A stretch of DNA of 64,000 nucleotides, from positions 2,257 to 66,256 of the forward strand of contig DAOVVV010000010.1 of NCBI GenBank assembly GCA_030637025.1, read 5' to 3'. The notes beneath the pieces were generated by a model, which did not search any database, was not told the DNA's origin, and saw only the letters and a list, made by a program, of their open reading frames with translations. Source of the DNA: Clostridia bacterium (lineage in GTDB: Bacteria > CBDUZB01 > JAGLHV01). The position numbers and the translations under genes were made by a program. Positions 4,458-52,327 of this stretch are shown here, in pieces; the stretch's first letter is position 1, and each line of letters opens with the position of its first letter.

Positions 4458-4507
4458 TAGTATTTCGAATTTAGTATTTATTTTAGATTTTTGTAAAATA
4501 CAATATT

Positions 4508-4582
4508 CTGTCATTCCGCACTCGATGCGGAATCTATAATGTTTTTAAATATCAATAGATTCCTGCTTCCGCAGGAATGACA
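4508..4582. repeat. Composite REP-like element: two opposed hairpins (gtcattccgcactcgatgcggaatc … gattcctgcttccgcaggaatgaca) bounded by inverted tgtcattcc/ggaatgaca termini
   Basis: About 90% identical to 47755-47829. Each arm is a perfect 8-9 bp stem-loop. Confidence 0.85.
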
Positions 4583-4597
4583 AACCGGAGGATATAA

Positions 4598-9031: not shown

Positions 9032-9090
9032 ATTTAAAATTTCGGATTTATTCTATATGTTTAGTATTTATTCTTTGTCTTTTTTATTTT

Positions 9091-9907: not shown

Positions 9908-9935
9908 CCCTTGCTATCGGGTTCCCTTCTTGATT

Positions 9936-9970: not shown

Positions 9971-10028
9971 TAAATAATAAAGCAGGTCAGATAGAGAGAT
10001 AGTTCATTTAAATTTACAGATTTTCAAA

Positions 10029-10062
10029 GCAATTGTAGGGGCGACATTTATGACGCCCGTCC
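10029..10062. repeat. Family C repeat copy
   Basis: gcaattgtaggggcgacatttatgacgcccgtcc. Confidence 0.8.
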
Positions 10063-10095
10063 AAAACCTGTTGATGCGGAATCTGTAAAATATCT

Positions 10096-10122
10096 GTCAT
10101 TCCTGTGCAAACAGGAATCTAT
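10096..10122. repeat. Family A REP hairpin
   Basis: gtcattcctgtgcaaacaggaatctat. Confidence 0.85.
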
Positions 10123-10175
10123 TTTTTGTCTTTAGAATTTGCTGGAGCAGAGAGACGAAGCAATTTTAAACTGTT

Positions 10176-10202
10176 GTCATTCCTGCGAAAGCAGGAATCT
10201 AT
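10176..10202. repeat. Family A REP hairpin (gtcattcctgcgaaagcaggaatctat), preceded by the ttgctggagca…gcaattttaaa module
   Basis: Module+hairpin 10135-10202 recurs at 11307-11369. A related fragment is at 9123-9175. Confidence 0.85.
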
Positions 10203-10265
10203 TCTTTGCTGTTTTTAGTTTTTTAACTTATAATTCATAACTGTAGTTTGTAAATCGGGGTTCAT

Positions 10266-10982
10266 TTGATCGACCTACATTCACATATATTACCGGAACT
10301 AGACGACGGAGCAAAAACAGTAGAAGAAGCTCTTCAAATGTGCCGTATAGCAGAAGCAGACGGGATAACTACCATTGTTGCTACTCCGCACAGTATGAAT
10401 GGTATATATTTAAATAAAAAAGAAACTGTTTGCCGGAAGGTTGATGAATTTAACAATACATTAAAAAAAGAAGAAATAAATATAAATGTTTTACCGGGAT
10501 TGGATTTACACCTTTATCCGGAATTAATTCTTCATCTTAAAGAAGGAAAAATTTTAACTTTAAACAACCGGGGATGTTATTTAATTATAGAATTTCCGGA
10601 GGTGATTTCTTCTCATATTGAATCTGTTTGTTTTAATTTGCAGGTTTTGGGAGTAATTCCTGTTATTAGTCATCCGGAGCGAAATTATTTTTTTCGGAAA
10701 AATCCACAAGTTTTACAGGGTTTTGTAAATAGGGGAGCTTTGGTACAGGTAACTGCTATGAGTATAACCGGAGAATTTGGTAAAGAAGCGGAAAAAGCAG
10801 TGAAAAATTTTCTTAAAAAAAATTTAGTACATATTATTGCTACAGATGCGCATTCTATAGATAGGCGTCCGCCCCTTCTTTCTTCAGCAGTTAAAGTAGC
10901 AGCGAAAATTGTGGGTAAAGAACAAGCCTGGAGAATGGTTACTACTATTCCCGAAAAGATTATAAACCAAAAAAGGGCTTAA
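10266..10982 (+). CDS. PHP-family protein-tyrosine phosphatase (CpsB/CapC/YwqE-like), TTG start
   Basis: N-terminal HSHILPELDDGA metal-binding motif and the overall PHP-domain pattern (…ATPH…SHPER…DAHS). Sits next to the BY-kinase gene. Confidence 0.8.
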   Translation: MIDLHSHILPELDDGAKTVEEALQMCRIAEADGITTIVATPHSMNGIYLNKKETVCRKVDEFNNTLKKEEININVLPGLDLHLYPELILHLKEGKILTLNNRGCYLIIEFPEVISSHIESVCFNLQVLGVIPVISHPERNYFFRKNPQVLQGFVNRGALVQVTAMSITGEFGKEAEKAVKNFLKKNLVHIIATDAHSIDRRPPLLSSAVKVAAKIVGKEQAWRMVTTIPEKIINQKRA

Positions 10983-11112
10983 TCGGTATTCCTGCTTTTC
11001 CCCCTTGACAAAGGGAAATCGAAAAGGCCCTTTTTTGGCAAATATAAGTTTTTAATTGAAAGCCCTATTATTTTAATATTTTTTAAAGTATTTGTCCATT
11101 ATTTTTATTTCT

Positions 11113-11138
11113 GTCATTCCTGCGAAAGCAGGAATCTA
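11113..11138. repeat. Family A REP hairpin
   Basis: gtcattcctgcgaaagcaggaatcta. Followed at 11147-11200 by the variant gtcattccgctccgcctgaggcg…gataaggcgg. Confidence 0.85.
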
Positions 11139-11342
11139 AAACAGTTGTCATTCCGCTCCGCCTGAGGCGCTTGTCCGCCTCTGGAGGAGATAAGGCGGAT
11201 ATAGAATTTAGATATTAGTATTTATTCTTTGCATTTGTTTCTGTCTATGAACTGTCTTTTATATTTATCTGTTGTCTTTGTCTATGGACTATTTCATTTA
11301 GAATTTTGCTGGAGCAAAGAGACGGAGCAATTTTAAAGTGTT

Positions 11343-11369
11343 GTCATTCCTGCGAAAGCAGGAATCTAT
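11343..11369. repeat. Family A REP hairpin
   Basis: gtcattcctgcgaaagcaggaatctat. Confidence 0.85.
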
Positions 11370-11438
11370 TCTTTGTCGTCTTTAGTTTTTTAACTAATAA
11401 CTAATAACTAATAACTGTAGTTAAAAGGAGGAACCCAA

Positions 11439-13301
11439 ATGTTTAACCAAAACGAAGAAGTTCATTTAAAAGATTACCTGGAAATAATTATTCAAAGAAG
11501 ATGGATTATAATAACCTTTTTCTTAGTAATGCTTACCACCGTTACTATCGGCACATTTCGTCAGATTCCCATTTATCAAGCCACGGCAACAGTGCTTATC
11601 GATAAAGAAAGCCCCAATATCATTGCGGTTAAAGATGTAATGACGCTGGGTTCACCCGATTATTACGCCTATAAAGATTATCTGGAAACCCAGAAATTTG
11701 TTATTACCAGCAGGCCGGTTATCAAAAAAGTATACGAAGATTTAAATCTTTTTCTTCAGCCTGAATATAAAGAAACAAGTGATCCGCTCAATGTTCTGCA
11801 GAAAAAAGTAAAAGTAGAAAATATCAGAAATACCCGCCTGGTAAAAATCAATGTAGAAGATGCAGACCCTCAATATGCAGCAAAAATCGCCAATGGTATT
11901 GCTGATGTTTATATCTCTAAAAATTTAAATCGCCAAATGGTTGTTTCAGTTGAAGCTAATGAATGGCTTTCTCAAGAGCTGGACCGTCTTAAAAGCAAGG
12001 TAAAAGAATCAGAAGAGGCTCTTCAACAATATCGTGTGCAAAACAATATCATTTCTCTGAATGAAAAAGAAGAAGTAATTAATAAGGCGTTAAGTCTACT
12101 GACCAATGAACATTTAATGATGCAGGCAAAACTTGTTGAATACAAAAAGATTTATAAATATAAAAACCCTAAAATGATTCGACTTAATAAAGAACTTGAT
12201 GAATTAGGAAAAAGTTTAGCCCGGGAACGAAAAAGCGCCTTGGATTACGAACGAAAGGCTATAGAATATGGGGTGCTGGAAAGAGAAGTAAGAAGTAATA
12301 AAGAACTGTTTGAGTCTGTGTTAAAACGGGTTAAAGAAACTACTCTATCCGAAACAATAAAGGCAAACAACATCAGTATTCAGGAACGGGCAAAAGTTCC
12401 TTTAAGCCCAATAAAACCCCGGAAAAAATTAAATATCATTCTGGCCTGTCTGGTAGGTGCTGTAGGAGGAATAGGTTTAGCCTTTTTCTTTGATTATTTA
12501 GATAACAGTATTAAGACACCCGAGGATGTGGAAAAATATGTCCAATATCCTTTCTTAGGATATATCCCGGCAATAGAATCCGACAAAAAAGATACAATTG
12601 TTCAATTAGAGCCTAAATCAGGGGTAGCTGAAGCTTACCGTACTTTACGCACCAGTATTCTTTTTTCTTCCTCCGACCAGGTAGCTACCAAAAGTATTTT
12701 AGTTACCAGCCCGGGACCGGGAGAGGGAAAAACCATTACAGCATCTAATTTAAGTATAACTATGGCTGTAGGAGGAAGCAGGGTTCTTTTAGTTGATTCC
12801 GATATGCGTAAACCCAGGGTAAATAAAATATTTGACTTAAAAAATGATATTGGCTTGAGTAATTTTTTAGTAGGTCAGGCCGGACTGGATGAAATTGTTA
12901 AAGGAACAGGAATTCAAAATTTATCCGTAGTATCTTGCGGGCCTCGTCCGCCTAATCCGTCTGAGTTACTTACTTCCTTACAAATGATTGATTTTATCAA
13001 ACAGGCCACTGAAAAATTTGATAAGGTAATATTTGATTCACCGCCTTTAGGAGTAGTCACCGATGCTAATATTTTAGCCAAAATAGTAAGCGGGGTTATA
13101 CTGGTATTTCAGGGAGGTAAAACTTCCAGGAATATAATTCCCAGAATCAGACAGTTGTTAACAAATGCCCAGGCCCGGGTATTAGGAGTAACCATCAATA
13201 ATCTCCGCCAGGAAAGAAGCGGATATTATAATTATTATTACTACAACTATCAATATTACGGCAAAGAAGACGAAAAAAAAGAAACACCCGAACAAGTTTA
13301 A
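11439..13301 (+). CDS. Wzc-like chain-length determinant fused to a bacterial tyrosine (BY) kinase
   Basis: Two TM helices flank a Wzz-like periplasmic coiled-coil region. Walker A VTSPGPGEGKT, Walker A' VLLVDSDMRKPR, Walker B VIFDSPP. C-terminal tyrosine cluster YYNYYYYNYQYY. Confidence 0.85.
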   Translation: MFNQNEEVHLKDYLEIIIQRRWIIITFFLVMLTTVTIGTFRQIPIYQATATVLIDKESPNIIAVKDVMTLGSPDYYAYKDYLETQKFVITSRPVIKKVYEDLNLFLQPEYKETSDPLNVLQKKVKVENIRNTRLVKINVEDADPQYAAKIANGIADVYISKNLNRQMVVSVEANEWLSQELDRLKSKVKESEEALQQYRVQNNIISLNEKEEVINKALSLLTNEHLMMQAKLVEYKKIYKYKNPKMIRLNKELDELGKSLARERKSALDYERKAIEYGVLEREVRSNKELFESVLKRVKETTLSETIKANNISIQERAKVPLSPIKPRKKLNIILACLVGAVGGIGLAFFFDYLDNSIKTPEDVEKYVQYPFLGYIPAIESDKKDTIVQLEPKSGVAEAYRTLRTSILFSSSDQVATKSILVTSPGPGEGKTITASNLSITMAVGGSRVLLVDSDMRKPRVNKIFDLKNDIGLSNFLVGQAGLDEIVKGTGIQNLSVVSCGPRPPNPSELLTSLQMIDFIKQATEKFDKVIFDSPPLGVVTDANILAKIVSGVILVFQGGKTSRNIIPRIRQLLTNAQARVLGVTINNLRQERSGYYNYYYYNYQYYGKEDEKKETPEQV

Positions 13302-13329
13302 ATCGTCATTCCGCTTGTGTTTTTATATT

Positions 13330-13356
13330 GTCATTCCGCACTTGATGCGGAATCCA
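13330..13356. repeat. Family A REP hairpin (gtcattccgcacttgatgcggaatcca)
   Basis: Same arm type as 4510 and 47757. A half-copy cgtcattccgcttgtg lies just upstream at 13304. Confidence 0.8.
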
Positions 13357-13375
13357 TTTTTTATGTGGTTATGTG

Positions 13376-13408
13376 GTAGCCGCAGGCTTTAGCCTGCGTT
13401 ATTGTCGG
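13376..13408. repeat. Family B repeat gtagccgcaggctttagcctgcgttattgtcgg
   Basis: Matches 5761 and 8998. Confidence 0.8.
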
Positions 13409-13484
13409 AGCAGAGCTTTGCAAATCTGCCTCAGGCATGATATTCTGCTTGTTCTTTAGTTTTTTATCTGTTGTCTTTTTTTTT

Positions 13485-13511
13485 GTCTTTCCTGCGAAAG
13501 CAGGAATCTAT
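13485..13511. repeat. Family A REP hairpin (gtctttcctgcgaaagcaggaatctat)
   Basis: Followed by the hairpin cctctctccttgtgggagagg at 13523-13545. Confidence 0.8.
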
Positions 13512-13572
13512 TCTTTTATTTTTCCTCTCTCCTTGTGGGAGAGGATAGGGTGAGGGGAAATCAGAAAACCCA

Positions 13573-16113
13573 ATGAAAACAAAAATATTCGACCAAATAA
13601 TAGAAGCACTAATTATTTCCCTAATCATCATAACCCCGTTTATTTTTGTTCCTTTACGGGAATATGCATCAACCATAACCAACATTACAGCTATAATACT
13701 CCTTATGGTCTGGATGACCAAAATGATTTATGCCGGAAAAATAACCATTGTTAAAACCCCGTTAAACTGGATAATTTTATCTTTCCTTTTTTTAGGAATC
13801 TTACAGGTCATAGGTTTTAACAAAAATTTATTATGTATTCCCTCCACTGTTTATCAATATCCCACCATACTAAAAATCTTAGATATTTTAAGTCTGGCAA
13901 TAATTTTTTGGGTAATAATAAATAATTTTACTAAAAAATCCCAGATAAACCGCATTTTGACCGTAATAATTTTTATGGGTTTTTCCTTAAGTTTTCTATG
14001 TATTTTGCAGCATTTAAGCAAAGGTGGTAATACTTTTTTAGGCATAAAACCTATGTATGCAAGGTCTAAGTTTTTTGGTCCCTACATCAACGGTAACCAT
14101 TTTGCTGCTTATTTAGGAATGATTGTTCCCCTATCTATAGGGATGGGATTAGCTGAAATAAAAAAAAGTAAAAAACTATTATTCTGGTTTGTTGGAATAA
14201 TTATGGCCTTAGGGCTTTTATTTTCTCTTTCCAACGGGGGAATAGTTTCCTTTATAGGAGCAATGATTTTTCTTTTTATTTTTTTAAACAGCAGAAAATC
14301 TACTCAAAAAGGAAAATGGATTATTGCTACTGTTCTTTGTCTGGTTATTATGGGTGTTATTTGGTTGGGGGTTAGCCCGGTAAAAGAAGAGGCATCTCAG
14401 CTCTTTCAATTTAATCAATCAGAATCATTTCAATCCCGCTGGCCCGTATGGAAAGCAAGCATAAAAATGCTAAAGGGAAACTGGTTGTTGGGTACAGGAC
14501 TGGGTACCTTTCGTTATGTCTTTCCAAAATTCAGGCCTCCCGGAATAAACAGAGAATTCAGATATGTCCATAACGATTACTTAGAAGTTCTTCTAAATAC
14601 AGGTATTGTAGGATTTCTTATACTGTTTTTAGGTGGATTTTATTATTTTCGTAATATCCTTAAAAAATTTTATAAAAGACGAAATCCTTATATCATAGCA
14701 ATATCCTGTGGTCCCATCACTGCCTTATTTTCAATGTTACTGCATAGTTTTGTTGACTTCAACTTACAAATAGGTCCCAATGTTTTACTTTTTATTATTA
14801 TTACCGCTATTACTATTCAAATATTAAAACTTAGAAATGAAAATAAAGATACTAAATCCCCATTGGATAACTTAATAGTAATAAAAGAAAGAACGACCAA
14901 TATTTTCCTTACTGGATGGCAAAAGCCACTTGTCGTAGGAATTACCGGGATTATTTCAGTATTTCTAATATTAACATTAATAAAACCCGCCAGAGCCACC
15001 CATTATTACAATTGCTATGTCATTGAGAGGGGAGCAAACAAGGAATCAATCTCCAACAAAACTGTCATTGCGAGGAGGGTAACCAACGAATCAATCTCCA
15101 ATGAAACTGTCATTGCGAGGAGATCCAACGACGAAGCAATCTCAAAGAACAACAAAAACGTCATCTCAAGCTTAGAAAAAGCGATAGAGTTAAACCCTTT
15201 AAATGCACTTTATCACTATAAACTTTCCTTAGAATATTTAAAGAAAAAACCACAAAACAAAAACATTAAAAATTCTTTAAAAGAAATGAAACAGGCAATA
15301 TATCTTAATCCAACAAATGCAAAGTATCACCTGACTCTTGCCATGCTCTACAGCCAATTGGCAAATTGGCCCATTACCCATCAGCCATCAAAGGACGATT
15401 ACATAAAGTTAGCTCATCAGGAATTCCAGCAAGCAATTTATTTAGCACCTAATACCCCCTATGGACATAAAAACTATGCTGATTGGCTTTTTACCCAACC
15501 TATCAAGGAGAACATCGAAAAAGGAATTGTTGAGTATAAAACGGCGATTACTTTAAAGCCGGAGTTGACTGCTAATGCTCTTGGTTTTTGTTATAACTTA
15601 ACCCATAACTATAATTTATTATCAGAAATAATACCGGATACAACCGATGGTCATTTCACTTTAAGAAAATACCTTATTAAAAAAGGATTAAAAGAAAAAG
15701 CTTTAGAGGAAGAAAATATTATATTAGATAAAATAACAGAAGAGCTTTCTTTTGCGGAAAATAAAAAAGAAGTTTACCAAAAAGCAGGACAAATTTATCA
15801 TGACTTAGGAAGATTTAACGAAGCAATAAAAGTGTATCACGAAGCTATGGACCTTGGTTTACAAAACAGTTGGTCTTATTATCGTCTTGCAGATAGCTAT
15901 AGAAAATTAGGTAAGATGGATTTAGCTATAAAATATTTTAAACTTTCATTAGAATTAGATGAAGAGAACTGCTGGGCATACTTTAGTTTAGCACGAACAT
16001 ATCAAGGTTTAGGCAAAAAAGCTGAGGCAGAATCAATGTGGCAGGAAATTATTAATTTAAAAAATGCAGATTCTGATGCTAAACGGATAGCTAAAAGGGA
16101 ATTAAAAAAATAA
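13573..16113 (+). CDS. O-antigen ligase/Wzy-family polytopic membrane protein fused to a C-terminal TPR domain
   Basis: About 11 TM helices carrying a Wzy_C-like loop (…SFIGAMIFLF…HNDYLEVLLNTGIVGF…). C-terminal ~330 aa has TPR-like repeats (…NPLNALYHYKLSLEYL…, …AIKVYHEAMDLG…, …YFKLSLELDEENCWAYFSLA…). A 45-bp in-frame tandem repeat lies in the linker. Confidence 0.75.
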   Translation: MKTKIFDQIIEALIISLIIITPFIFVPLREYASTITNITAIILLMVWMTKMIYAGKITIVKTPLNWIILSFLFLGILQVIGFNKNLLCIPSTVYQYPTILKILDILSLAIIFWVIINNFTKKSQINRILTVIIFMGFSLSFLCILQHLSKGGNTFLGIKPMYARSKFFGPYINGNHFAAYLGMIVPLSIGMGLAEIKKSKKLLFWFVGIIMALGLLFSLSNGGIVSFIGAMIFLFIFLNSRKSTQKGKWIIATVLCLVIMGVIWLGVSPVKEEASQLFQFNQSESFQSRWPVWKASIKMLKGNWLLGTGLGTFRYVFPKFRPPGINREFRYVHNDYLEVLLNTGIVGFLILFLGGFYYFRNILKKFYKRRNPYIIAISCGPITALFSMLLHSFVDFNLQIGPNVLLFIIITAITIQILKLRNENKDTKSPLDNLIVIKERTTNIFLTGWQKPLVVGITGIISVFLILTLIKPARATHYYNCYVIERGANKESISNKTVIARRVTNESISNETVIARRSNDEAISKNNKNVISSLEKAIELNPLNALYHYKLSLEYLKKKPQNKNIKNSLKEMKQAIYLNPTNAKYHLTLAMLYSQLANWPITHQPSKDDYIKLAHQEFQQAIYLAPNTPYGHKNYADWLFTQPIKENIEKGIVEYKTAITLKPELTANALGFCYNLTHNYNLLSEIIPDTTDGHFTLRKYLIKKGLKEKALEEENIILDKITEELSFAENKKEVYQKAGQIYHDLGRFNEAIKVYHEAMDLGLQNSWSYYRLADSYRKLGKMDLAIKYFKLSLELDEENCWAYFSLARTYQGLGKKAEAESMWQEIINLKNADSDAKRIAKRELKK
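15040..15147 (+). repeat. In-frame 45-bp (15-aa) tandem repeat (2.4 copies) within the Wzy-TPR gene linker. Contains ctgtcattgcgagg, reminiscent of the REP family A arm.
   Basis: aaggaatcaatctccaacaaaactgtcattgcgaggagggtaacc / aacgaatcaatctccaatgaaactgtcattgcgaggagatccaac / gacgaagcaatctca. Encodes KESISNKTVIARRVTN-ESISNETVIARRSND-EAIS. Confidence 0.8.
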
Positions 16114-31409: not shown

Positions 31410-32179
31410 ATGAAATATATCAAAATGGCAGTAAAGAATGTGATTCCAAAGAAATATTATACTTTAGTGAGGAGTATTTATTCTTCCATTAAATATTTTG
31501 GTTTGCGTTTTAAATGTCCCTGTTGTGGAGGAAATTTTCGTAAATTTCTATCTTGTGGTATTAAATTACGAAGAAATGCTTTATGTCCTAGGTGTGGATC
31601 TTTAGAACGACATCGTCTTTTGTACTTATACCTCAAAGATAAAACCAATTTTTTTAGTGAACAGTTAAGAGTTTTTGATATTGCTCCCATGTATTTTTTT
31701 GCAAAAAAATGTAAGAAGTTGAAAAAACTTAATTATATTAGTGTTGATATTTTATCTCCAATAGCAATGGTTAAAATGGACATTAGAAATATTAGTTTCT
31801 CTAATAATCAATTTGATTGTATAATTTGTTACCATGTTCTTGAACATATTCTTGATGATGAAAAAGCAATGAGAGAATTGTATAGAATCTTAAAGCCGGG
31901 TGGTTGGGCAATATTGCAATCACCTATAGATTACAATCGCGAGAAGACTTTAGAGGATTCTAATATCGTGTCACCTACGAGCGAGAGCGTTTTTTTGGAC
32001 AAAAAAGCCATGTTAGGATATATGGGCAAGACTATAAAGATAGACTTGAAAAGGCAGGGTTTATTGTGAAACTTGATAACTATGTTAGAGAACTAGGAAA
32101 TAATATCATCAAAAAATATGGTTTGGATAAGAATGAGAGTATATATTATTGTACCAAATCAAAATCAAAAGGGAATTAG
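31410..32179 (+). pseudogene. Class I SAM-dependent methyltransferase (Methyltransf_11-like) with an N-terminal Zn-ribbon. Interrupted by a -1/+2 frameshift near 31995-32010 (a T7/A6 homopolymer tract).
   Basis: The ORF 31410..32069 ends prematurely. The alternative frame continues …VRIYGQDYKDRLEKAGFIVKL…SKSKGN* to the TAG at 32177-32179, which is the typical methyltransferase C-terminus. The shift maps to gtttttttggacaaaaaagcc. Confidence 0.5.
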
Positions 32180-32260
32180 GGGACGTAGTTTAAAGGTTAA
32201 AAGTATTGATATATGATTGAAAAAAGGATAAACGAAACGTATGCCAAGAGAAGCCAGAAT
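32174..32260 (+). repeat. Left copy of an ~87-bp direct repeat (RAYT promoter region plus the first 7 codons ATGCCAAGAGAAGCCAGAAT) lying upstream of the Fic gene
   Basis: About 90% identical to 33640-33726. Overlaps the 3' end of the frameshifted methyltransferase. Confidence 0.8.
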
Positions 32261-32432
32261 TTTGAGGGACGTTGTCAATTTGTCAAGTTGTGATAAAAAA
32301 AGAAGAGATTAATAAAAAAGAGAAGATGTAAAGGAGAGGGGAAGAAGTAACTAAAAATAAAGCAAAAGTAATAGAAAAGATAATTAGTTAATAAAGGATG
32401 CAACGTTCCCTATATTGCTTGGAGGTATTGAG

Positions 32433-33566
32433 ATGAATCTTAAAGATTTTAAAGCTGGTGTTTATAGACAACAATATCAATATAAAAGTTTTCTACCTGA
32501 AAAAATAAATCATCCATGGATTTGGGATGATCCTAAAATCAATGTCCTATTAGAAAAAGCCACTCAATCATTAGGTGAACTTAATGCATTTTCACTTATT
32601 GTTCCAGATGTAGATGTTTTTATTCAAATGCATATTGTCAAAGAAGCACAAGCGTCAAGCAAAATAGAAGGTACAAAAACCAACATAGATGAAGCAATAA
32701 TGGATAAGAATGTTATAGTTCCTGAAAAAAGGGATGACTGGCAAGAAGTAAAAAACTATATAGCGGCAATGAAATATGCTATTAGGAAACTTGAGAAGTT
32801 ACCATTAAGCAACAGATTATTAAAAGGGATGCATAAAATTTTATTGATGGGGGCTCGTGGCAAACACAAATTACCAGGAGAGTTTCGTAGAACCCAAAAC
32901 TGGTTTGGAGGTTCAAGCCCATCAGATGCTGTTTTTGTACCACCAACCCATGATGAAGTACCGGAGCTTATGGGCGACATTGAAAAGTTTTTGCACAACG
33001 AAGAGATAGAAGTTCCTCATCTTATCAAAATAGCAATTGGGCATTATCAATTCGAGACTGTTCATCCATTTAATGATGGAAATGGCCGTTGTGGCAGATT
33101 GATGATAACATTTTATTTAGTTGCAAATAAATTGCTTATTAAACCTTCATTATATTTATCTGATTTCTTTGAAAAAAACAGAATATCTTATTATGACGCG
33201 CTTTCTCGTGTACGAGAAAGTAACGATTTATCACACTGGATAAAATTTTTCTTAAATGGAATTACAGTGACTGCAGAAAAAGGGAAGAAAACATTTCAAG
33301 GAATATTGAAACTTAAAAATGATATCGACGCAAAAATAGTAAAACTCAACAGAAAAGCTGAAAGAGGAAGAGAATTTGTTCATTACCTTTATAGTAAACC
33401 AATAGTAAGTATTAATGATGTAGTTAATTTTTTTAAGATAACTAAAAAGTCTGCCATTTCTTTGGTTAGTGATTTTGAGAAATTAGGAATATTAAAGGAG
33501 TTAACTGGATATAAAAGAAATAAACTATTTGCTTTTAGTGATTATTTGGAATTGTTCTTAAAGTAA
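32433..33566 (+). CDS. Fic/DOC-family protein (class II Fic with an N-terminal inhibitory SxxxEG helix), predicted AMPylator
   Basis: Canonical active-site motif HPFNDGNGRCGRL (HxFx[D/E]GNGRxxR). N-terminal ASSKIEGT carries the [S/T]xxxE[G/N] inhibitory motif. C-terminal wHTH-like tail. Start chosen at 32433 (ggaggtattgag-ATG). Confidence 0.8.
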   Translation: MNLKDFKAGVYRQQYQYKSFLPEKINHPWIWDDPKINVLLEKATQSLGELNAFSLIVPDVDVFIQMHIVKEAQASSKIEGTKTNIDEAIMDKNVIVPEKRDDWQEVKNYIAAMKYAIRKLEKLPLSNRLLKGMHKILLMGARGKHKLPGEFRRTQNWFGGSSPSDAVFVPPTHDEVPELMGDIEKFLHNEEIEVPHLIKIAIGHYQFETVHPFNDGNGRCGRLMITFYLVANKLLIKPSLYLSDFFEKNRISYYDALSRVRESNDLSHWIKFFLNGITVTAEKGKKTFQGILKLKNDIDAKIVKLNRKAERGREFVHYLYSKPIVSINDVVNFFKITKKSAISLVSDFEKLGILKELTGYKRNKLFAFSDYLELFLK

Positions 33567-33639: not shown

Positions 33640-33726
33640 ATTAAGGGACGTAGTTTAAAAGTTTAAAGTATTGACATATGATTGAAAAAAGGATAAACTA
33701 AGCCTATGCCAAGAGAAGCCAGAATA
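33640..33726 (+). repeat. Right copy of the ~87-bp direct repeat: the authentic RAYT promoter and 5' coding end
   Basis: See 32174-32260. Confidence 0.8.
33671..33699 (+). promoter_or_regulatory. Putative RAYT promoter TTGACA-N17-TAAACT inside the right direct repeat
   Basis: ttgaca 33671-33676, taaact 33694-33699. The left-repeat copy is degenerate (ttgata…taaacg). Confidence 0.45.
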
Positions 33727-34695
33727 GATTATCCAGGAGCTCTGCACCATGTAATTGGAAGAGGGATAGAAAGAAGTAAAATATTTGAAGAGGATACGGA
33801 TAAGGAAAAGTTTTTACTTCGATTAAAGTTACTATTAGATAAGAGTGGTATGCAATGTTATGCATGGTGTATTATGGATAATCATTTTCATTTGTTACTT
33901 CTTACCGGGAAAACCCCGTTATCAGAATTCATGAGAAAATTACTAACGGGATATGCTGTTAATTATAATAAAGAGCACAAGAGAATTGGTCATTTATTTC
34001 AAAATAGATATAAATCAATATTATGTGATAGGGATGAATATTTGTTGCCGCTAATAAGATATATACATTTAAATCCGGTAAGAGTGAAAAAAGTGGAGAT
34101 AAATAAATTGCCTGGATATAAATGGACAAGTCATAAAGAAATGATAAATAAGCAGAAGAAAGAAGATAAATTAATAGAAGCAGAAGAAGTCTTGGGATAT
34201 TTTGGGAAGAGGAGAAAGGAATCAATAGCAGGATATGTAGAATATGTTAGAGAAGGAAAAGAATTAAGAGAAGATTATGGGGGAGGGGGATTAATAAGGA
34301 GGGCAGGAGGAATAAAAGAAATATTGAAGAGAAAAGCTGAGGAGCGAGAGCTGTATGATGAGCGGATATTAGGGTCGGGAGGATTTGTAGAAGAAACCTT
34401 GAGGAGGATGGAGCAAGAAGAAGATAAATATCCAAAGATCAGGAATATAGAGGAGCTAATAGGGAGAATCAGCAGGTATTATGGTATAGAAGTAGAAGAG
34501 ATAATAGAAACGAGGAAAAAGAAAGTAAGAGAAGCGAGGAGTGTATTAGTATATTTGGCGAGTAAATATTTAAAGGAAACAGGGGTAAAAATAGGAAAGT
34601 TGTTGGGAGTAGGAAAAGGAGCGATAAGTATAGCAAAAGAAAAAGGTAGAAATTTTTGTAAAGAGAAAGGGATTGAGGGGCACATATTACAATAA
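33706..34695 (+). mobile_element. REP-associated tyrosine transposase (RAYT; IS200-like Y1 HuH family) with a C-terminal DnaA-C-like HTH extension. Intact.
   Basis: HuH motif (DNHFHLLL), catalytic-Tyr region (FQNRYKS), and the RAYT-specific Y-I-H-L-N-P-V-R motif. No IS terminal inverted repeats. Surrounded by REP-like hairpins. Its own TTGACA-N17-TAAACT promoter is at 33671-33699. Confidence 0.75.
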
Positions 34696-34950
34696 ATTAA
34701 ACAATTGAGCAGCGTCCTTAAAATGATATGATAGGTTTTATTGAAAGCAAAAAATATTTTATGCAATAGTAAATGTTGTTTTGTACATAAAATATTGTTG
34801 TTTTGTGCATAATTGTATGGTATAGGATTTTGAAGCACAACGGAGTTTACTTGGTTGACTTAAAGGGAAAATTAGTAAACGGTCTTAGAATAAAAGAATT
34901 GGAGTTAGATTTTTACATTTTACATTAAAGATAAAAATAATGCTAAATGG

Positions 34951-34977
34951 ATAGATTCCTGCTTTTGCAGGAATGAC
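34951..34977. repeat. Family A REP hairpin in reverse orientation (atagattcctgcttttgcaggaatgac), directly downstream of the RAYT
   Basis: Read directly. Followed by the ccgcctcaggcgg module. Confidence 0.85.
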
Positions 34978-35007
34978 CCGACTAATCCTCCGCCTCAGGC
35001 GGATAAG

Positions 35008-35056
35008 GCGGAGCGGGCAGGCAACAAGGGAAGAAGGCTATTTTGCAGAAGGCTAA
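35008..35056. repeat. About 50-bp gene-proximal module …agcgggcaggcaacaagggaagaaggctattttgcagaaggctaa
   Basis: Also at 47845-47890 and 48604-48650. Each copy ends 30-100 bp upstream of a start codon (35153, 47919, 48674). Confidence 0.75.
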
Positions 35057-35152
35057 ATGCTCATTAAAATAAGGAGGGGACAGTTGGTTGTATGTTTTTC
35101 CATATGGTAAAATTATAAAAATTAAACGAGAAGGGTTAAGGAGAGATTTATT

Positions 35153-35620: not shown

Positions 35621-36529
35621 ATGGAAATTTTGATTGTTTTTTTGGGTAGTTTGTTGGTTTCTTTGTTGATGATACCTTTGATAATGAAAATAGCAATAAA
35701 GAAAAGTTTTTTTGACCGGCCGGAAAATGTTTTAAAAATCCACAAAGAGCCCATCCCGCATTTGGGAGGGGTGGCTATTTTTATTAGTTTGGTGGTGGGG
35801 TTAATTACTGCCGGTTTTTTATTGGAATCATTTAAGTTTGCCGGAATTATAAGTATGGTTGTTGCTGCGGGTATAGTTTTTTTTATGGGTTTATGGGATG
35901 ATTTTAAAGAAGTTAAACCTGTTTATCGGTTTATAGCCCAGATAAGTGCAGGAATTATTCTGGTTTTGTCCGGATATAAAATAGGTTTTGTCAATTGTCC
36001 GGGTTTGAGCGGGATTTTGATTGTTCTTTATGTTTTAGGTTCGATAAACAGTATGAATTTACTGGATGGGATAGATGGATTAGCTGCCGGGGTGACCTTA
36101 ATTATTGGCTTGGGATTTTTAACGGCTTTTATTATGCAGGCTAATTTTTTTGGAATAGTTGTATCACTTATCTTTATTGGGGCGGTATGGGGTTTTTTAC
36201 CTTATAATTTTCCTAAAGCGTTTATATTTATGGGAGATAACGGAAGTACGCTTCTGGGGTTTATCTTAGCTTTTTTAGCCATAAATCTTGCTCAGTCCTC
36301 TGAGTTTAGCTGGTTTATTGCCTCGGTTGTGATTATGGGAGTGCCTATCATTGACACAGCGGTAGCAATTGCAAGGAGAATAATAAAGAAACGGCCGATT
36401 TTCCAGGGGGATCGCAGTCATATTTATGATTGGTTAATGGATAAAGGGATGAGTTCGAAAGAAACGGTATTTATTTTTTGCATAGCGGGGTTTGTTTTTC
36501 TTGTTATAGGATTGGTGGTGGGGGTATAA
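35621..36529 (+). CDS. Polyprenyl-phosphate HexNAc-1-phosphate transferase (WecA/MraY family, GT4-PNPT), the initiating phosphoglycosyl transferase
   Basis: Polytopic. Conserved PNPT motifs: …FMGLWDDFKEVKP…, NSMNLLDGIDGLAAG, FMGDNGSTLLGF. Start at 35621 (aggagtaaag-ATG) preferred over the track start at 35582. Confidence 0.8.
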   Translation: MEILIVFLGSLLVSLLMIPLIMKIAIKKSFFDRPENVLKIHKEPIPHLGGVAIFISLVVGLITAGFLLESFKFAGIISMVVAAGIVFFMGLWDDFKEVKPVYRFIAQISAGIILVLSGYKIGFVNCPGLSGILIVLYVLGSINSMNLLDGIDGLAAGVTLIIGLGFLTAFIMQANFFGIVVSLIFIGAVWGFLPYNFPKAFIFMGDNGSTLLGFILAFLAINLAQSSEFSWFIASVVIMGVPIIDTAVAIARRIIKKRPIFQGDRSHIYDWLMDKGMSSKETVFIFCIAGFVFLVIGLVVGV

Positions 36530-36778
36530 AGACGGTTAAAAGGCGGTTGAATTGGTTTAGATTGGTTTTATTGGTTAGAAAAGAAAAGATAAAAGACAGT
36601 TAAAGACAGTTAAAGACAGTTGGAAAAGACGGTTAAAAGGCGGTTGAATTGGTTTAGATTGGTTTAATCGGTTAGAAAAGAAAAGATAAAAGACAGTTAA
36701 AGACAGTTGGAAAAGACGGTTAAAAGACGGTTGAATTGGTTTAGATTGGTTTTATTGGTTGAAAAGATAAAAGAGACC
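36527..36778. repeat. About 87-bp tandem repeat, ~2.9 copies (aaagacggttaaaaggcggttgaattggtttagattggttttattggttagaaaagaaaagataaaagacagttaaagacagtt…)
   Basis: Read directly. Partial related copies at 50549-50622 and 52228-52268. Confidence 0.85.
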
Positions 36779-36896
36779 TAAAGACAGTCGATAGTCCATA
36801 GACTACAGATAAAGACAAAAGACAAAGACAAAGACAAAGACAAAGACAAAAGACAAAAGACAGAGACAGAGACAGAGACAACGACTAAAGACAAAG
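36779..36896. repeat. 'tccatag' unit (reverse orientation) followed by an (AAAGAC)n/(AGAGAC)n hexanucleotide tract of ~85 bp
   Basis: taaagacagtcgatagtccatagactacag, then aaagacaaaagacaaagacaaagacaaagacaaagacaaaagacaaaagacagagacagagacagagac. Confidence 0.85.
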
Positions 36897-36897
36897 A

Positions 36898-36924
36898 ATA
36901 GATTCCTGTTTGCACGGGAATGAC
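36898..36924. repeat. Family A REP hairpin in reverse orientation (atagattcctgtttgcacgggaatgac)
   Basis: Reverse complement of the 9091 type. Confidence 0.8.
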
Positions 36925-41054: not shown

Positions 41055-41693
41055 ATGAATCAAAAAAATGTTTTCGCAGGGAAGAGAAAGTATTATTTCA
41101 TTAATGAGTATTTTCAGATAAAAGACATATTGAAAGTTTGTTTTTTGGTAGTTGTCGGATGTGTTATTTTTGCTGCAATTATATATCTTTTTTCAAAGCA
41201 GACGATGACTACTTCTTTTGAAAATTCCCGTTTAGTGTTGAAAAGTACGGCGGATTTTATTTTTCCTGCTCTTGTTTCCAGTATGATTGTGGTAATTACG
41301 GTGTTAAGTATTATTTGCCTTATAGTAGTTTTATTTGCTTCTCAAAATATAATAAGGCCGATGTGTATTTTAGCCGGGAAGGTCAAGGATATGGGTGAAG
41401 GGGACCTTACTTTAACTATTAATTCAACGGCTCAGGTTGAAATGGGAGAAGTGGTTGGAAATTTTAATGAAATGCTTGAAAAACTTAAAAGCCGTATATT
41501 GCAAATAAAAGGAATAAACGGTGAATTAGGAGAAAACATTGAAAAATTAAGGAAAATACGCGGAACCTGTTCACAAGAAGAAGCTAAATTAATAGAAGAG
41601 TTATTGAAAAAACAAGAAGAAATAAGTGAGAGGCTTGCTTATTTTAAAACGGAGAGTAAAGACAAAAGACAGTCCATAGTCCACAGTCAATAG
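41055..41693 (+). CDS. Small membrane protein with two TM helices and a HAMP domain; no output domain
   Basis: TM1 (VCFLVVVGCVIFAAIIYLF) and TM2 (FIFPALVSSMIVVITVLSIICLIVVLFA), followed by a HAMP-like IIRPMCILAGKVKDMGEGDLTLTI…FNEMLEKLK. The last 12 codons and the stop lie inside the intergenic repeat mosaic. Confidence 0.55.
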   Translation: MNQKNVFAGKRKYYFINEYFQIKDILKVCFLVVVGCVIFAAIIYLFSKQTMTTSFENSRLVLKSTADFIFPALVSSMIVVITVLSIICLIVVLFASQNIIRPMCILAGKVKDMGEGDLTLTINSTAQVEMGEVVGNFNEMLEKLKSRILQIKGINGELGENIEKLRKIRGTCSQEEAKLIEELLKKQEEISERLAYFKTESKDKRQSIVHSQ

Positions 41694-42200
41694 TCCATAG
41701 TCCATAGATAAAGAATAAAGACAGTCCATAGTCCACAGTCAATAGTCCATAGACAAAGACAAAGACAAAGACAAAGAATAAAGAATAAAGAATAAAGAAT
41801 AAAGACAGTCTATAGTCGATAGTCGATAGTCCATAGACAAAGAATAAAGATAGTCCATAGATAAAGACTAAAGAATAAATACTAAATTCAAAATACAAAA
41901 TTCTAAACAAAGACAAAGAATAAAAATAAATACTAAATAACAACTTTAAACAAAGCAAGCTTTGCAACTACTGGATTCCGCATCATCCGCCTCAGGCGGA
42001 GCGGAATGACAACATAAAAACATAAATTCAAAACAAAGACAAAGACAAAAGATAAAGAGTAAAAACAGTCCATAGAACAGAAACAAATGCAAAGAATAAA
42101 TCCCCCTAACCCCCTTTTCCAAAGGGGGAAACTCAATGAGGGCTGTTGCTTTGCTCCAGCAAAATAAAGAGAAGACGGTAAAGATAGTCCATAGACAGAA
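41660..42200. repeat. About 540-bp mosaic repeat block: 3 'tccatag' units, (AAAGAC)4, (ATAAAGA)4, an aaatactaaattc module, a ccgcctcaggcgg/ggaatgac hairpin, the poly-C/G hairpin (42098-42131) and a ttgctccagcaa module
   Basis: All sub-modules have copies elsewhere in the window. The block overlaps the last codons of the HAMP gene. Confidence 0.85.
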
Positions 42201-46607: not shown

Positions 46608-47198
46608 ATGCAAAATTTATCCGATATGCAATTAATAGACAGTTATAAGGAAGGAAATTCAGACGCCCTTAATTCCTTAATTGAAAGATATTCTCAACCT
46701 GTATTCACCTTTATTTATCAAATGGTTGGGGACCGGGTCCTGGCAGAAGATGTTTTTGGGGAGGTATTTTTGAAAATGATAAAAAATATCAGTCGCTATA
46801 GAAATGAAGGTAAGTTTAAAAGCTGGTTGTATAAAATAGCCAGGAATCAGGTGATAGATATTTTAAGAAAAGAAGGGAAAATGAAAATATTTTCTCTGGA
46901 TAAAGTAGTTAATCCCGACACTGAAAGACCGTTAACCCTCGAAGATAAACTTTCCTGCCGGTCACCGCTACCGGAAAATATACTTCAGAATAAAACTATT
47001 CAGGAGGATTTAGAAGAAGCAATATCTTCTTTATCTTTCGAGCAAAGAGAAGTTTTTCTCTTGCGGGAATACTCAAATCTTTCATTTAAGGAAATTGCTT
47101 CAACGTTGAAATGTCCGCTTAATACTGTGCTGGGAAGAATGCATTATGCTTTAAAGAAATTGCGGGTTAAATTATCTGCAAAGTATGGGGGAAATTAA
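46608..47198 (+). CDS. ECF-type RNA polymerase sigma-70 factor (sigma-24 family)
   Basis: Region 2 (…FTFIYQMVGDRVLAEDVFGEVFLKM…WLYKIARNQVID) and region 4 HTH (…SFKEIASTLKCPLNTVLGRMHYALKKLR). Confidence 0.8.
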   Translation: MQNLSDMQLIDSYKEGNSDALNSLIERYSQPVFTFIYQMVGDRVLAEDVFGEVFLKMIKNISRYRNEGKFKSWLYKIARNQVIDILRKEGKMKIFSLDKVVNPDTERPLTLEDKLSCRSPLPENILQNKTIQEDLEEAISSLSFEQREVFLLREYSNLSFKEIASTLKCPLNTVLGRMHYALKKLRVKLSAKYGGN

Positions 47199-47720
47199 AT
47201 GAATTGCTATTTTTTTAAAGAAAAAGGTATTCTTTATTTATACGGGGAATTAAATGAACAGGAGATGAAAAGATTCAGGCAGCATTTAGAATCTTGCCCT
47301 TTTTGCAGGGAAGAAGTACTAAAGTTAAAGGAAACAATAAATATTTTTAAAGAAAAAAGAATGAATAAGCCGGATTCGGGAGTGGTAGAAAACATTCTTT
47401 TAACAACTAAGGAAAAAGGTTTTTTAAAACCGGGTATCTTCTCTTTTAATTATAAATCGCCGATTTTTACTTTTTGCTCGGTAGCAGCGGTAGTAGTAAT
47501 TGGGTTTTTGTTTTTTTATCAAAAAGATTTTGGTCTCTTAAGCGAGAAGATGTCATGGCAATTTGAAGATGAAATTGAGATAGTCAGGAAAGAAGTAGAT
47601 GAAGAGATAGGTTTTTTCGATGAGGAAATAAATGATTATTCTGCATCTTTTTTTAATAGGGAAATGGAAGAGATTAAAACAGAAGTAGATGAATTAGGGC
47701 TTGAGATGAATGAGGTTTGA
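47199..47720 (+). CDS. Zinc-finger (HxxxCxxC) anti-sigma factor with a single-pass TM
   Basis: Start abuts the sigma-factor stop. H-x3-C-x2-C motif (HLESCPFC). TM (IFTFCSVAAVVVIGFLFFY). Confidence 0.65.
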   Translation: MNCYFFKEKGILYLYGELNEQEMKRFRQHLESCPFCREEVLKLKETINIFKEKRMNKPDSGVVENILLTTKEKGFLKPGIFSFNYKSPIFTFCSVAAVVVIGFLFFYQKDFGLLSEKMSWQFEDEIEIVRKEVDEEIGFFDEEINDYSASFFNREMEEIKTEVDELGLEMNEV

Positions 47721-47754
47721 AAAATATTTTAAGTCTTCTGCGAAATAACACATT

Positions 47755-47829
47755 CTGTCATTCCGCACTTGATATGGAATCTATAATGTGCTTGAAATAT
47801 CAATAGATTCCTGCTTTCGCAGGAATGAC
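47755..47829. repeat. Second copy of the 75-bp composite REP-pair element
   Basis: ctgtcattccgcacttgatatggaatctataatgtgcttgaaatatcaatagattcctgctttcgcaggaatgacc versus the copy at 4508. Confidence 0.85.
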
Positions 47830-47844
47830 CCTCTTTAAGGACTG

Positions 47845-47890
47845 GCGGGCAGGCAATAAAGATAAAAAGACTATTTTGCAAAAGTCTAAA
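47845..47890. repeat. 50-bp gene-proximal module copy (ggcgggcaggcaataaagataaaaagactattttgcaaaagtctaa)
   Basis: See 35008. Confidence 0.7.
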
Positions 47891-47918
47891 AATATTTAAA
47901 AAAAGGAGGTAATATAAA

Positions 47919-48512
47919 ATGAGAAAGAAGTTTTTGATAGCAGCAGCAGTCTTAGTTTTTTCCGCAACTTTTATTTCTTTGGTGAAGACAGGGGTTACGG
48001 CTAAACCAGTGCCGGAACATCGTATGCGAACAAAAGTTATTTTGGAAGGAGAGGAAAGGATGTTTATGGAGTATTTGCGGGAAAAAAATCCTGAAAAGTT
48101 TGAAAAAATGAGGGAATTAAAAACAGAAAGGCCTCATTTGTATTTAGAGATACTCCAACGGGGAATAAAGGAAAAGCATCTTATGAAAAGGCTTAAAAAG
48201 GAAGATCCCGCCCGGTATGAGAGAAAAAAGGAGATATTACAACTTAGAGCTAAAAATTGGCGGTTGGGAAGAGAATATAGAGAATGTGAATCTGATAAAA
48301 GAAAAGAAGAAATAAGAAAAGAGATTAAAGAGTCGTTGGACAGACTTTTTGATTTAAAGCAAGAGGAAAATTATTGTAGAATAACTGAGGTTGAAAAGAA
48401 ATTAAAAAAACTAAAAAAGAGAGGTGAAACCCGAAAGAAAAATAAGGGGAAAATAATTAATCAGCGGTTTAATCGGATAATTAATAAAGCGGAAGATCTG
48501 GGTTGGGAATAA
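47919..48512 (+). CDS. Hypothetical secreted K/E/R-rich coiled-coil protein
   Basis: Signal peptide. Highly charged helical sequence. Lies downstream of the ECF operon and directly after a 50-bp repeat module. Confidence 0.45.
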   Translation: MRKKFLIAAAVLVFSATFISLVKTGVTAKPVPEHRMRTKVILEGEERMFMEYLREKNPEKFEKMRELKTERPHLYLEILQRGIKEKHLMKRLKKEDPARYERKKEILQLRAKNWRLGREYRECESDKRKEEIRKEIKESLDRLFDLKQEENYCRITEVEKKLKKLKKRGETRKKNKGKIINQRFNRIINKAEDLGWE

Positions 48513-48587
48513 GATTGTATGGCCTTGCATAGTTGATTTCATTTGTTAATTTTGTATAATTAAAAGGGTAGGAATGACCCGTCTTAT

Positions 48588-48650
48588 CCGCCTGAGGCGG
48601 AGCGGGCAGGCAAAAAAGGTAAAAAGGCTATTTTGCAGAAGTCTAATTAT
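48588..48650. repeat. ccgcctgaggcgg hairpin plus a 50-bp gene-proximal module copy
   Basis: ccgcctgaggcggagcgggcaggcaaaaaaggtaaaaaggctattttgcagaagtctaa. Confidence 0.75.
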
Positions 48651-48673
48651 TTTATAGGAAAGGAGGGGTTTTT

Positions 48674-48910
48674 ATGAATAAAAACGTTGGATTAAGAAAG
48701 ATTTTTGGTTGGTGGAGCGTAATAATTTGTATTGCAGGATTTATAAGCGGGTGTACTTATTATGTTAAGGCTCCCCCTGCTCCTGCGGTAAAGACAGAAA
48801 TAAGAACGATTAGACCTTATCCCCGGGCTGTATGGGTGCCGGGACGCTGGAAATGGCGGCGGAGAAGAGGAAGGCATGTTTGGATTCCGGGACATTGGAG
48901 AAGAAGATAA
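48674..48910 (+). CDS. Small lipoprotein with WxxGxW-type repeats
   Basis: Lipobox (IAGFISGC). C-terminal repeats WVPGRWKW and WIPGHWRR. Lies directly after a 50-bp repeat module. Confidence 0.5.
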   Translation: MNKNVGLRKIFGWWSVIICIAGFISGCTYYVKAPPAPAVKTEIRTIRPYPRAVWVPGRWKWRRRRGRHVWIPGHWRRR

Positions 48911-50548: not shown

Positions 50549-50694
50549 AAAAAGACAGTTGGAAAAGACAGTTAAAAGACAGTTAAATTGGTTGAATTGG
50601 TTTTATTAGTTTAGATTGGTTCAAAGACAAAAGACAAAAGACAAAGATAAAGACAATCTTTTCCCTCTTTGAAAAAGGGGGTTAGGGGGATTTA
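50549..50694. repeat. Mosaic: a partial 87-bp-family copy, an (AAAGAC)n tract (50623-50656), and the poly-C/G terminator-like hairpin (50658-50694)
   Basis: Read directly. Lies after yjbQ. Confidence 0.8.
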
Positions 50695-51319: not shown

Positions 51320-52152
51320 AAAAAATAATCGTGTTGACTAATCCCCAAAAAAAAGAAGTTAAGAGTATTTTCCCTTCCCTGGTAAATTGGTTGGAAAAGA
51401 AAAAAATAGAGGTTTCAGTAAACCAGACCGGTAAAGAGAATTTTAAAAAAACGGATTTGGTGGTTGTTTTAGGTGGGGATGGAACAATATTAAAAGCAGC
51501 AAGATTGGTGGTGCCTTTTGGGATTCCCGTTCTGGGAATTAATTTGGGAGAATTTGGGTTTTTATCCGGAATAAATGTTAAAAGTCTGTATTCTACCCTG
51601 GAGCGGATTTTAAAGAAGGATTATTATATAGAGGAAAGGATTCTTCTCACTGCTAAGGTAATAGGTCCATTATCCTCTAATAAAAAGAATAACTCGAAGT
51701 TTTTTTTCTTATCTTTAAATGATATAGTCGTTAAAAATGCGAGTTCAGCAAGAGTAATTAAGTTAAAAGTAAAACTGGGAAGTAAACAAATTACCCAATG
51801 GGTGGGAGATGGGTTAATTGTGGCTACTCCCACGGGTTCAACGGCATATTCATTAGCCGCCTTTGGACCCATTGTTTATCCAACTCTGCCGGTGTTAATT
51901 ATTACTCCGATTTGTCCTCATCTTTTATCGTTCAGGTCTTTAGTATTACCGGCCGGTGAATTAATTTCTATTCAAGTGGATTCTGGAAAGAATGTGATGC
52001 TTTCTGTAGATGGCCAGGAAGAAATGAATTTGGGATATAATGATATTATTGAGATAAAACAGGCGAAGAAAAAACTTAAATTGGTTTGTTTATCTGGGAA
52101 TGCGGATTATTTTCAGATTTTAAATAAAAAACTTAAATGGGGAAAAAGGTAA
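51316..52152 (+). CDS. nadK: NAD+ kinase, GTG start overlapping the rsmD stop
   Basis: GGDGT motif (VVLGGDGTILKAA), NDIVV, and DGLIVATPTGSTAYSLAAFGPIV signatures. Confidence 0.85.
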   Translation: MKKIIVLTNPQKKEVKSIFPSLVNWLEKKKIEVSVNQTGKENFKKTDLVVVLGGDGTILKAARLVVPFGIPVLGINLGEFGFLSGINVKSLYSTLERILKKDYYIEERILLTAKVIGPLSSNKKNNSKFFFLSLNDIVVKNASSARVIKLKVKLGSKQITQWVGDGLIVATPTGSTAYSLAAFGPIVYPTLPVLIITPICPHLLSFRSLVLPAGELISIQVDSGKNVMLSVDGQEEMNLGYNDIIEIKQAKKKLKLVCLSGNADYFQILNKKLKWGKR

Positions 52153-52156
52153 AAAA

Positions 52157-52275
52157 ACAGTCCATAGTCCACAGTCGATAGTCCATAGACAAAGACAAAG
52201 AATAAATACTAAATTCGAAAGTCAAATAAAAGACAGTTTAATTGGTTGAATTGGTTTAGATTGGTTCAAAGACAA
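52157..52275. repeat. Mosaic: 'tccatag' unit, (AAAGAC)2, an aaatactaaattc module, and a partial 87-bp-family copy
   Basis: Begins 5 bp after the nadK stop. Confidence 0.8.
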
Positions 52276-52327
52276 AAGATAAAGGTAAAGATAAAAAATT
52301 TAAGATTTAAAATTTGGGAGTTAAAAA

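Follow-up and report, generated by a model that had tools for sequence, protein, structure and literature searches.

A short module that recurs upstream of three genes in a 64,000-nt stretch of Clostridia bacterium DNA (contig DAOVVV010000010.1, positions 2,257–66,256; hereafter the window) is, with a probability that we put at about 0.85, the right subterminal block and right terminal inverted repeat (TIR) of a ∼160-bp non-autonomous, MITE-like transposable element. It represents a new family of a familiar type of element, from an uncultured lineage; it is an ordinary selfish repeat and not a shared promoter or operator. The original prediction had proposed a portable promoter or operator. 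Portability is borne out by an empty site in five relatives, by TIRs and by a target-site duplication (TSD), while the promoter or operator function is unsupported; the module recurs ahead of three genes as a footprint of transposition, not as a regulatory signal common to them.

The window contains three module copies, all on the + strand (copy 1, 35013–35056; copy 2, 47845–47889; copy 3, 48602–48646), with the consensus GCGGGCAGGCAA-N13/14-CTATTTTGCA(G/A)AAG(G/T)CTAA. The core GCGGGCAGGCAA is found exactly three times (at 35013, 47845 and 48602; 0.07 expected) and the block CTATTTTGCARAAGKCT likewise three times (at 35038, 47871 and 48628; 0.09 expected), and a search of both strands of the window gave no further copy of either. 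The distance between the two is 25 or 26 nt, reflecting a 1-nt indel in the A/G-rich spacer. The predicted three-copy repeat is thereby confirmed, with about none expected by chance; the coordinates first assigned to it marked real copies but were off by 2–5 nt on the 5′ side. Also as predicted, a start codon with a good ribosome-binding site lies 25–100 bp beyond each copy: the distances are 96 nt (ATG 35153, 123-aa protein), 29 nt (ATG 47919, 197-aa protein) and 27 nt (ATG 48674, a WXXGXW lipoprotein of 78 aa according to Pfam), and all three ATGs are preceded by an AGGAGG-type Shine-Dalgarno sequence (SD). Copies 2 and 3 do follow an ECF sigma/anti-sigma operon, the Pfam domains agreeing with that assignment (ECF sigma, 46608–47198; zf-HC2 anti-sigma, 47199–47720). 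Two features had been overlooked. Similarity among the copies reaches further 5′ than the module as first drawn, taking in a hairpin, ATAGATTCCTGCTTTYGCAGGAATGACCC, and a CCGCC...GGCGG hairpin, and a Hamming scan with the last 19 nt of the module revealed inverted copies, one of which (47730–47748) lies 141 nt, start to start, upstream of the right end of copy 2.

The exact boundaries of the element are given by comparison of the filled site with empty ones. The orthologous gene cluster was located through homologues of the 197-aa protein (62–73% identity) in five related genome lineages, represented by seven fetched loci (L040, L043, L045, L047, L049, L050 and L051); an exact-protein look-up of the 197-aa protein gave no match. 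In the relatives the anti-sigma stop codon and the ATG of the 197-aa gene are joined by an uninterrupted 30 nt (...gaggtttgaAAAATATTTTAAAAAAGGAGGTAATATAAAATG) containing one AAATATTT, and the gene is the third cistron of the sigma/anti-sigma operon, without the module. In the window, 160 bp separate the same two flanks, and AAATATTT stands at either edge of the insert. With the site empty in five relatives, copy 2 is an insertion into the operon, placed in the 30-nt stop-to-SD spacer. The SD and ATG of the 197-aa gene, already present in the empty sites, are older than the insertion, which rules out the SD as part of the repeat. Between the right flank of copy 2 and the empty site there is a one-base difference in an A-run, so the TSD can be counted as 8 or 9 bp. 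The features of the complete copy are as follows.

47722..47729, unstranded: left TSD AAATATTT, 8 bp (9 bp counting the preceding A)
47730..47889, + strand: copy 2, complete 160-bp MITE-like element, delimited by empty orthologous junctions and a full-length nhmmer profile match
47730..47748, − strand: left TIR, reverse complement TTATTTCGCAGAAGACTTA, matching the right TIR at 15/19 positions
47756..47784, + strand: hairpin A TGTCATTCCGCACTTGATATGGAATCTAT, REP-like; repeat family D17, also at 4509 and 13329
47803..47831, + strand: hairpin B ATAGATTCCTGCTTTCGCAGGAATGACCC, the frame of hairpin A inverted; repeat families D4, D9 and D12
47845..47889, + strand: C block (GCGGGCAGGCAA and A-rich spacer) plus right TIR, together module copy 2
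47871..47889, + strand: right TIR CTATTTTGCAAAAGTCTAA
47890..47897, unstranded: right TSD AAATATTT, single in the relatives' empty sites and double in the window

The order is thus left TIR, hairpin A (arms TGTCATTCC...GGAATCTAT), hairpin B, C block and right TIR. The hairpin B unit also stands alone at 4555, 34951 and 36898, and inverted at 9090–13519. As a single strand, copy 2 has a predicted fold closed by pairing of its TIRs (−44.9 kcal/mol, z −4.2). Known full-length copies measure 157–177 bp, leaving no space for a transposase open reading frame.

A look-up of the ECF sigma factor matched only near-identical strains, in all of which copies 2 and 3 are kept. Four metagenome contigs of near-identical strains (L036, L037, L038 and L039) stop at the margin of copy 2, inside the anti-sigma gene or shortly past it, as would be expected if repeats interrupt assembly; such repeats would explain intergenic assembly breaks in this organism.

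Partial copies, together with one native promoter needed to place copy 3, are these.

4483..4583, + strand: left-half copy (left TIR, hairpin A, hairpin B), nhmmer profile positions 2–100, E 1.5e-27
34945..35056, + strand: copy 1, partial, nhmmer profile positions 67–156
48533..48560, + strand: putative native promoter of the 78-aa lipoprotein gene, TTGATT-16-TATAAT, sigma-70-type, in the same orthologous place in L050 and L051
48570..48646, + strand: copy 3, 5′-truncated, nhmmer profile positions 89–157

In copy 1, hairpin B (34951–34979) is followed by an extra CCGCCTCAGGCGG hairpin and then by C block and right TIR (35038–35056), with no clear left TIR or TSD; copy 3 retains the 3′ half of hairpin B ahead of a CCGCCTGAGGCGG hairpin, C block and right TIR (48628–48646), with no TSD seen. 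Both alignment and the repeat finder place hairpin ATAGATTCCTGCTTTYGCAGGAATGACCC ahead of copies 1 and 2, only its 3′ half being retained in copy 3, and the extra CCGCCTSAGGCGG hairpin is common to copies 1 and 3. Since neither has a TSD, the transposition origin of these two copies rests on their homology to the full-length element. Truncation and nested insertion of other repeats would have been the course of decay, leaving SD-proximal ends such as copies 1 and 3. The left-half copy, lacking C block and right TIR, abuts the SD and ATG of the next gene directly. Upstream of the orthologue of the 123-aa gene in L054 the DNA is different and the module is missing. Just past copy 1, at 35069–35110, the TIR is followed at its usual distance of 14 nt by an SD (AAGGAGG), then by TTG and eight codons only; this is apparently what is left of a gene start next to which the element formerly lay.

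Copy 3 begins 9 nt after the −10 of the native lipoprotein promoter, which is conserved in three lineages (in L051 and L047/L050 it reads TTGATT-16/17-TATAAT and is followed by a short leader). Lying between this promoter and the ribosome-binding site, copy 3 falls in the 5′ UTR. At this site L051, L047/L050 and L040 lack the module, L040 having different repeats there. In L043 the native promoter is missing from the region before the lipoprotein gene, and in its place is an independent full-length element (10660–10817) with its own duplication. The region is a repeat hot spot: across the five lineages compared (window 48513–48673 and the orthologous sites in L040, L043, L047/L050 and L051) its content differs and its length runs from 113 to 448 nt. 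In the relatives an intact hairpin (atgaagggc...gcccttcat) follows the 197-aa gene; in the window it is eroded.

The distribution of the element was examined by scanning 185,579 species genomes, one genome per species, for the pattern GGGCAGGCAA-N10-17-CTATTTTGCA. The 11 hits are about the number estimated from chance, and only three loci (L005, L006 and L011) are true relatives, all from the metagenome-assembled genome 'Clostridia bacterium CSMAG_496'; the other eight, which share no flanking similarity, are chance matches. The same pattern gave 18 hits in metagenome contigs, all in coding or unrelated DNA, and a scan of viral contigs with the TIR gave three hits in coding sequence; these too were set aside as chance. 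A blastn search of plasmids found no match to the whole element. Judged by these scans, the family appears restricted to one lineage. The CSMAG_496 loci carry the window's whole repertoire of intergenic repeats beside different genes.

Across 168 kb from related genomes, nhmmer detected three full and about seven partial copies, and a recognisable TSD together with full length is found in only three of these about ten. The two full-length copies outside the window lie at 6821–6997 in L006, with TTTATAAT on both sides, and at 10660–10817 in L043, with (G)ATTTATTTA on both sides; they are 81–89% identical to copy 2 (88.5% for L043). The left and right TIRs show the same inverted match in L006 and L011 as in copy 2, and the predicted fold of the L006 copy likewise has its TIRs paired (z −5.5). 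Copies are 81–89% identical to one another, against 77–85% DNA identity for host genes; being about as diverged as the host genes, they give no sign of a very recent burst.

The element inserts into AT-rich targets of 8–9 bp, which become duplicated in the process. TIRs combined with a TSD of 8–9 bp indicate staggered-cut transposition, and from these we infer that the element would be moved in trans by the DDE-type transposase of an insertion sequence (IS). Duplications of 8–9 bp are typical of, among others, the families IS1, IS256, ISL3, IS66, IS6 and IS1595 and the IS903 group. No autonomous IS with matching ends, and no TIR pair around a transposase, was present in the sequences examined; the exact boundaries now available would allow a search for this partner.

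The insertion points lie 3–7 nt upstream of SD sequences, and the TIR end is 11–16 nt from the SD at 7 of 11 element ends, in either orientation. The SD-facing end is the right one in copy 2 and L043 and the left one in L006 and L011, where it faces divergent genes (a hypothetical protein in L006, valS in L011). These left ends keep the same SD distance without the GCGGGCAGGCAA block, so the orientation of the element does not matter. Other ends have no start codon close by: one points at the 3′ end of the anti-sigma gene, one in L006 at a convergent hairpin read by eye as a terminator, and one in L011 at a gene 246 nt away, with that gene's own TTGACA-17-TATAGT promoter between. The SD-proximal placement could reflect an AT-rich target preference, or survival only of insertions that spare the gene and its SD; the tight 11–16 nt spacing finds no explanation in simple random insertion. 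It is conceivable, if rather unlikely, that the element or its transposase specifically targets AT-rich bases just 5′ of the SD and that its ends have perhaps been co-opted as a leader cassette. Were that so, the cassette could supply, for example, a weak internal promoter or a processing site, such as one for RNase III; it would uncouple the downstream gene from its operon, and the family would be no neutral parasite but would create new 5′ UTRs throughout the lineage. Either way, the placement raises a testable question about target choice and about the tolerance of operons for 160-nt hairpins between cistrons.

A portable outward promoter, in which either the −35 of the TIR (TTTGCA/TTGCAR) or a −10-like TATTTT with AT-rich flank drives the downstream gene, seems improbable to us. 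Sigma-70-like outward promoters are documented in MITEs, among them Correia and MITEAba12 (PMC10969869), and a promoter scan does find TTTGCA-17-TAAAAT in copy 1. In L043, too, the loss of the native promoter leaves room for one contributed by the element, which there has TTTGCA-16-TATAAA. The hexamer TTGCAG/TTGCAA, originally put in a plausible −35 position, is indeed present, but a matching −10 would coincide with the SD: in copies 2 and 3, L005, L043 and the left ends of L006 and L011 the predicted −10 ends 13–16 nt after the TIR, on the SD itself, so that transcription would start past the SD and yield a transcript without it. This overlap occurs at 7 of the 11 ends, and the −10 has A2 and T6 at only 3 of them. 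The promoter scan matched copy 1 alone, with no match in copies 2, 3 or L043, and the spacing of the conserved blocks varies by 2 nt among copies. Nor does the genomic context call for such a promoter, since the copy 2 operon needs none at this place in the relatives, copy 3 is downstream of the conserved native promoter, and the L011 gene has its own between module and gene. Two variants were rejected. With TATTTT as the −10, the −35 falls on GCAGGC/CAGGCA (0–3 of 6 matches) and the spacer varies by 2 nt; for sigma-54 (GG-N10-GC), inspection puts the GG of AAGGCT only 8 nt from the GC of TTGCA, the wrong spacing. Individual copies may nevertheless have weak outward promoter activity, and regulatory side effects through a hybrid promoter or an RNA hairpin are conceivable.

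Hairpins A and B, REP-like and in inverted orientation inside the element, bring to mind a REP/REPIN-type element moved by a RAYT-like Y1 (HUH) transposase, and such a gene (33706–34695) lies ∼320 nt upstream of copy 1. It encodes Y1_Tnp and DnaA_C HTH domains and has a sub-threshold match to REP-associated tyrosine transposases (NF047646, 57 bits, cut-off 80), and GTAG-type REPs do occur in the genome (repeat family D15). Transposition of the IS200/IS605 Y1/HUH type, however, is not known to leave duplications of the kind that flank the full-length copies, which moreover have TIRs. In addition the module has no GTAG hairpin, and the orthologous Y1 gene in L052 has no adjoining module. The Y1 gene is therefore an unlikely mobiliser of the element, and we consider this origin very doubtful.

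The GTAG-headed REP-like hairpins GTAGCCGCAGGCTTTAGCCTGCG (window 5756–5796, 8994–9034 and 13371–13411; L005 7596–7675, where two stand in inverted, REPIN-like orientation) are better candidates than the module for the Y1/RAYT-like gene. That gene (+ strand) shares its 86-nt upstream segment and first 20 coding bases, at 92% identity, with a duplicate before a Fic gene (32415–33566), the two segments lying at 32175–32260 and 33640–33725. The region, between polysaccharide genes, is a variable island in which relatives have KilA-N/AbiEi/AbiEii or an AAA_14 gene.

An operator or ECF-sigma promoter that defines an envelope-gene regulon is hardly credible, despite the two copies that follow the ECF sigma/anti-sigma pair, the secreted or lipoprotein products encoded downstream and the quasi-palindromic right TIR of copy 2 (AGACT-ATTTTGCAAA-AGTCT). 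The palindrome is broken in copy 1 and L006, the module shows no conserved ECF motif of the GGAAC/CGT type, and the same operon lacks the module at the copy 2 site in five relatives and at the copy 3 site in three of them. Other copies adjoin valS, a FGGY (sugar) kinase or no gene; the genes beside the copies (valS, FGGY kinase, lipoprotein, hypotheticals) are unrelated in function and do not make up a coherent group, and the suggested regulon of downstream genes is unsupported. Equally far-fetched is a conserved cis-regulatory RNA leader (riboswitch, attenuator or sRNA) common to the three genes: copies 2 and 3 do belong to an operon transcript and a 5′ UTR, respectively, and sub-hairpins are present, but these vary in register and content among copies, orthologous leaders of all three genes lack the module in relatives, the right arm shows no significant structure by itself (z −0.2 to −2.2; in four of six copies no better than shuffles), and Rfam gives no match (best E 0.61 for 47650–48720 at E ≤ 1, 22 bits against a gathering score of 66, no family; in the whole window only a tRNA reaches gathering score). 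Also rejected was a 5-bp stem with the arms AGGCT/AGTCT and a TTTTGCA loop, which is broken in copy 1 and L006 and part of folds not better than shuffles.

Transposition, the reading that we prefer, leaves room for effects at the RNA level. Copy 2 would be co-transcribed in the ECF sigma operon and copy 3 transcribed within its 5′ UTR, and stable RNA hairpins from both may affect processing or stability.

The element has the defining features of bacterial MITEs as reviewed in PMC10969869. Like MITEAba12 of Acinetobacter, QMITE of Coxiella, Chunjie and Nezha, which measure 100–200 bp, it lacks open reading frames, has TIRs and 7–9 bp direct duplications, is multi-copy and intergenic, can fold into a hairpin over its whole length and is present or absent among related genomes. 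Unlike them, it has no partner IS found so far, its sequence is unrelated to the described families open to search, and its interior is made up of REP-like hairpin units that also stand alone across the genome. In how it works it seems to be most like Correia of Neisseria, which also lies mostly directly upstream of genes, may stand between promoter and gene, and is co-transcribed, its TIRs pairing in the RNA (PMC10969869). Correia, by contrast, has a TA duplication, different 26-bp TIRs, documented internal promoters and an IHF site and is confined to Neisseria; the present element shows none of these, its promoter geometry is unfavourable, and its 8–9 bp TSD and TIR sequence set it apart (Correia features partly from PMC10969869). 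With BOX of Streptococcus pneumoniae and with BIMEs and NIMEs it shares end and internal hairpin modules in varied combinations, nesting and intergenic clusters; those repeats, of which BIMEs are REPs linked to RAYT, are not known to have clear target-site duplications, whereas full-length copies here have them. An outward TTGCA-type hexamer near the outer end of an inverted repeat recalls the hybrid promoters formed by IS elements, but here insertion is so close to the SD that transcription would start past it.

For annotation, short repeats upstream of genes in this lineage are better treated as mobile mosaic repeats than as regulon motifs. Repeats of all families make up 32% of the non-coding DNA of the window against 0.6% of the coding DNA. 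Low-complexity or tandem intergenic repeats (36528–36900, 41650–41890, 4330–4500, 50573–50656 and 52141–52301) include AGACAA hexamers, AGTCCAT heptamers and units of 87 nt and 52/84 nt, and their lengths vary among near-identical strains. The spacer after the GT4 gene measures 201 nt in L060 and 471 nt in the window, and that after the HAMP gene 579, 732 and 887 nt in L030, L031 and L035, respectively. At 15018–15143 there are three tandem, hairpin-like 45-nt units (TGTCATTGCGAGGAG...CGAATCAATCTC, TRF score 168).

Several other features came to light in the related loci. In L006, positions 7030–7542 hold more than 500 nt without an open reading frame of at least 50 aa, beginning with a long hairpin and a minus-strand T-run (cgggctgcc...ggtagcccg); no Rfam family matches it at gathering score, and it could represent a non-coding RNA that lacks annotation or the terminus of a minus-strand unit. 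L011 contains, at 6160–6430, a second inverted-repeat element (ends ...TTGTGTCACAA / TTGTGACACAG...) that lies inside hairpin B and splits it. The junction of ATTGTGAYACAG with the 3′ half of hairpin B is also seen at L005 7688–7712 and in L040, which suggests that the family of this second element may target these hairpins. On the minus strand of L011, 708–1242, a group I intron match (Rfam RF00028, 53 bits) separates two tRNA matches; together these are probably one intron-containing tRNA gene in CSMAG_496.
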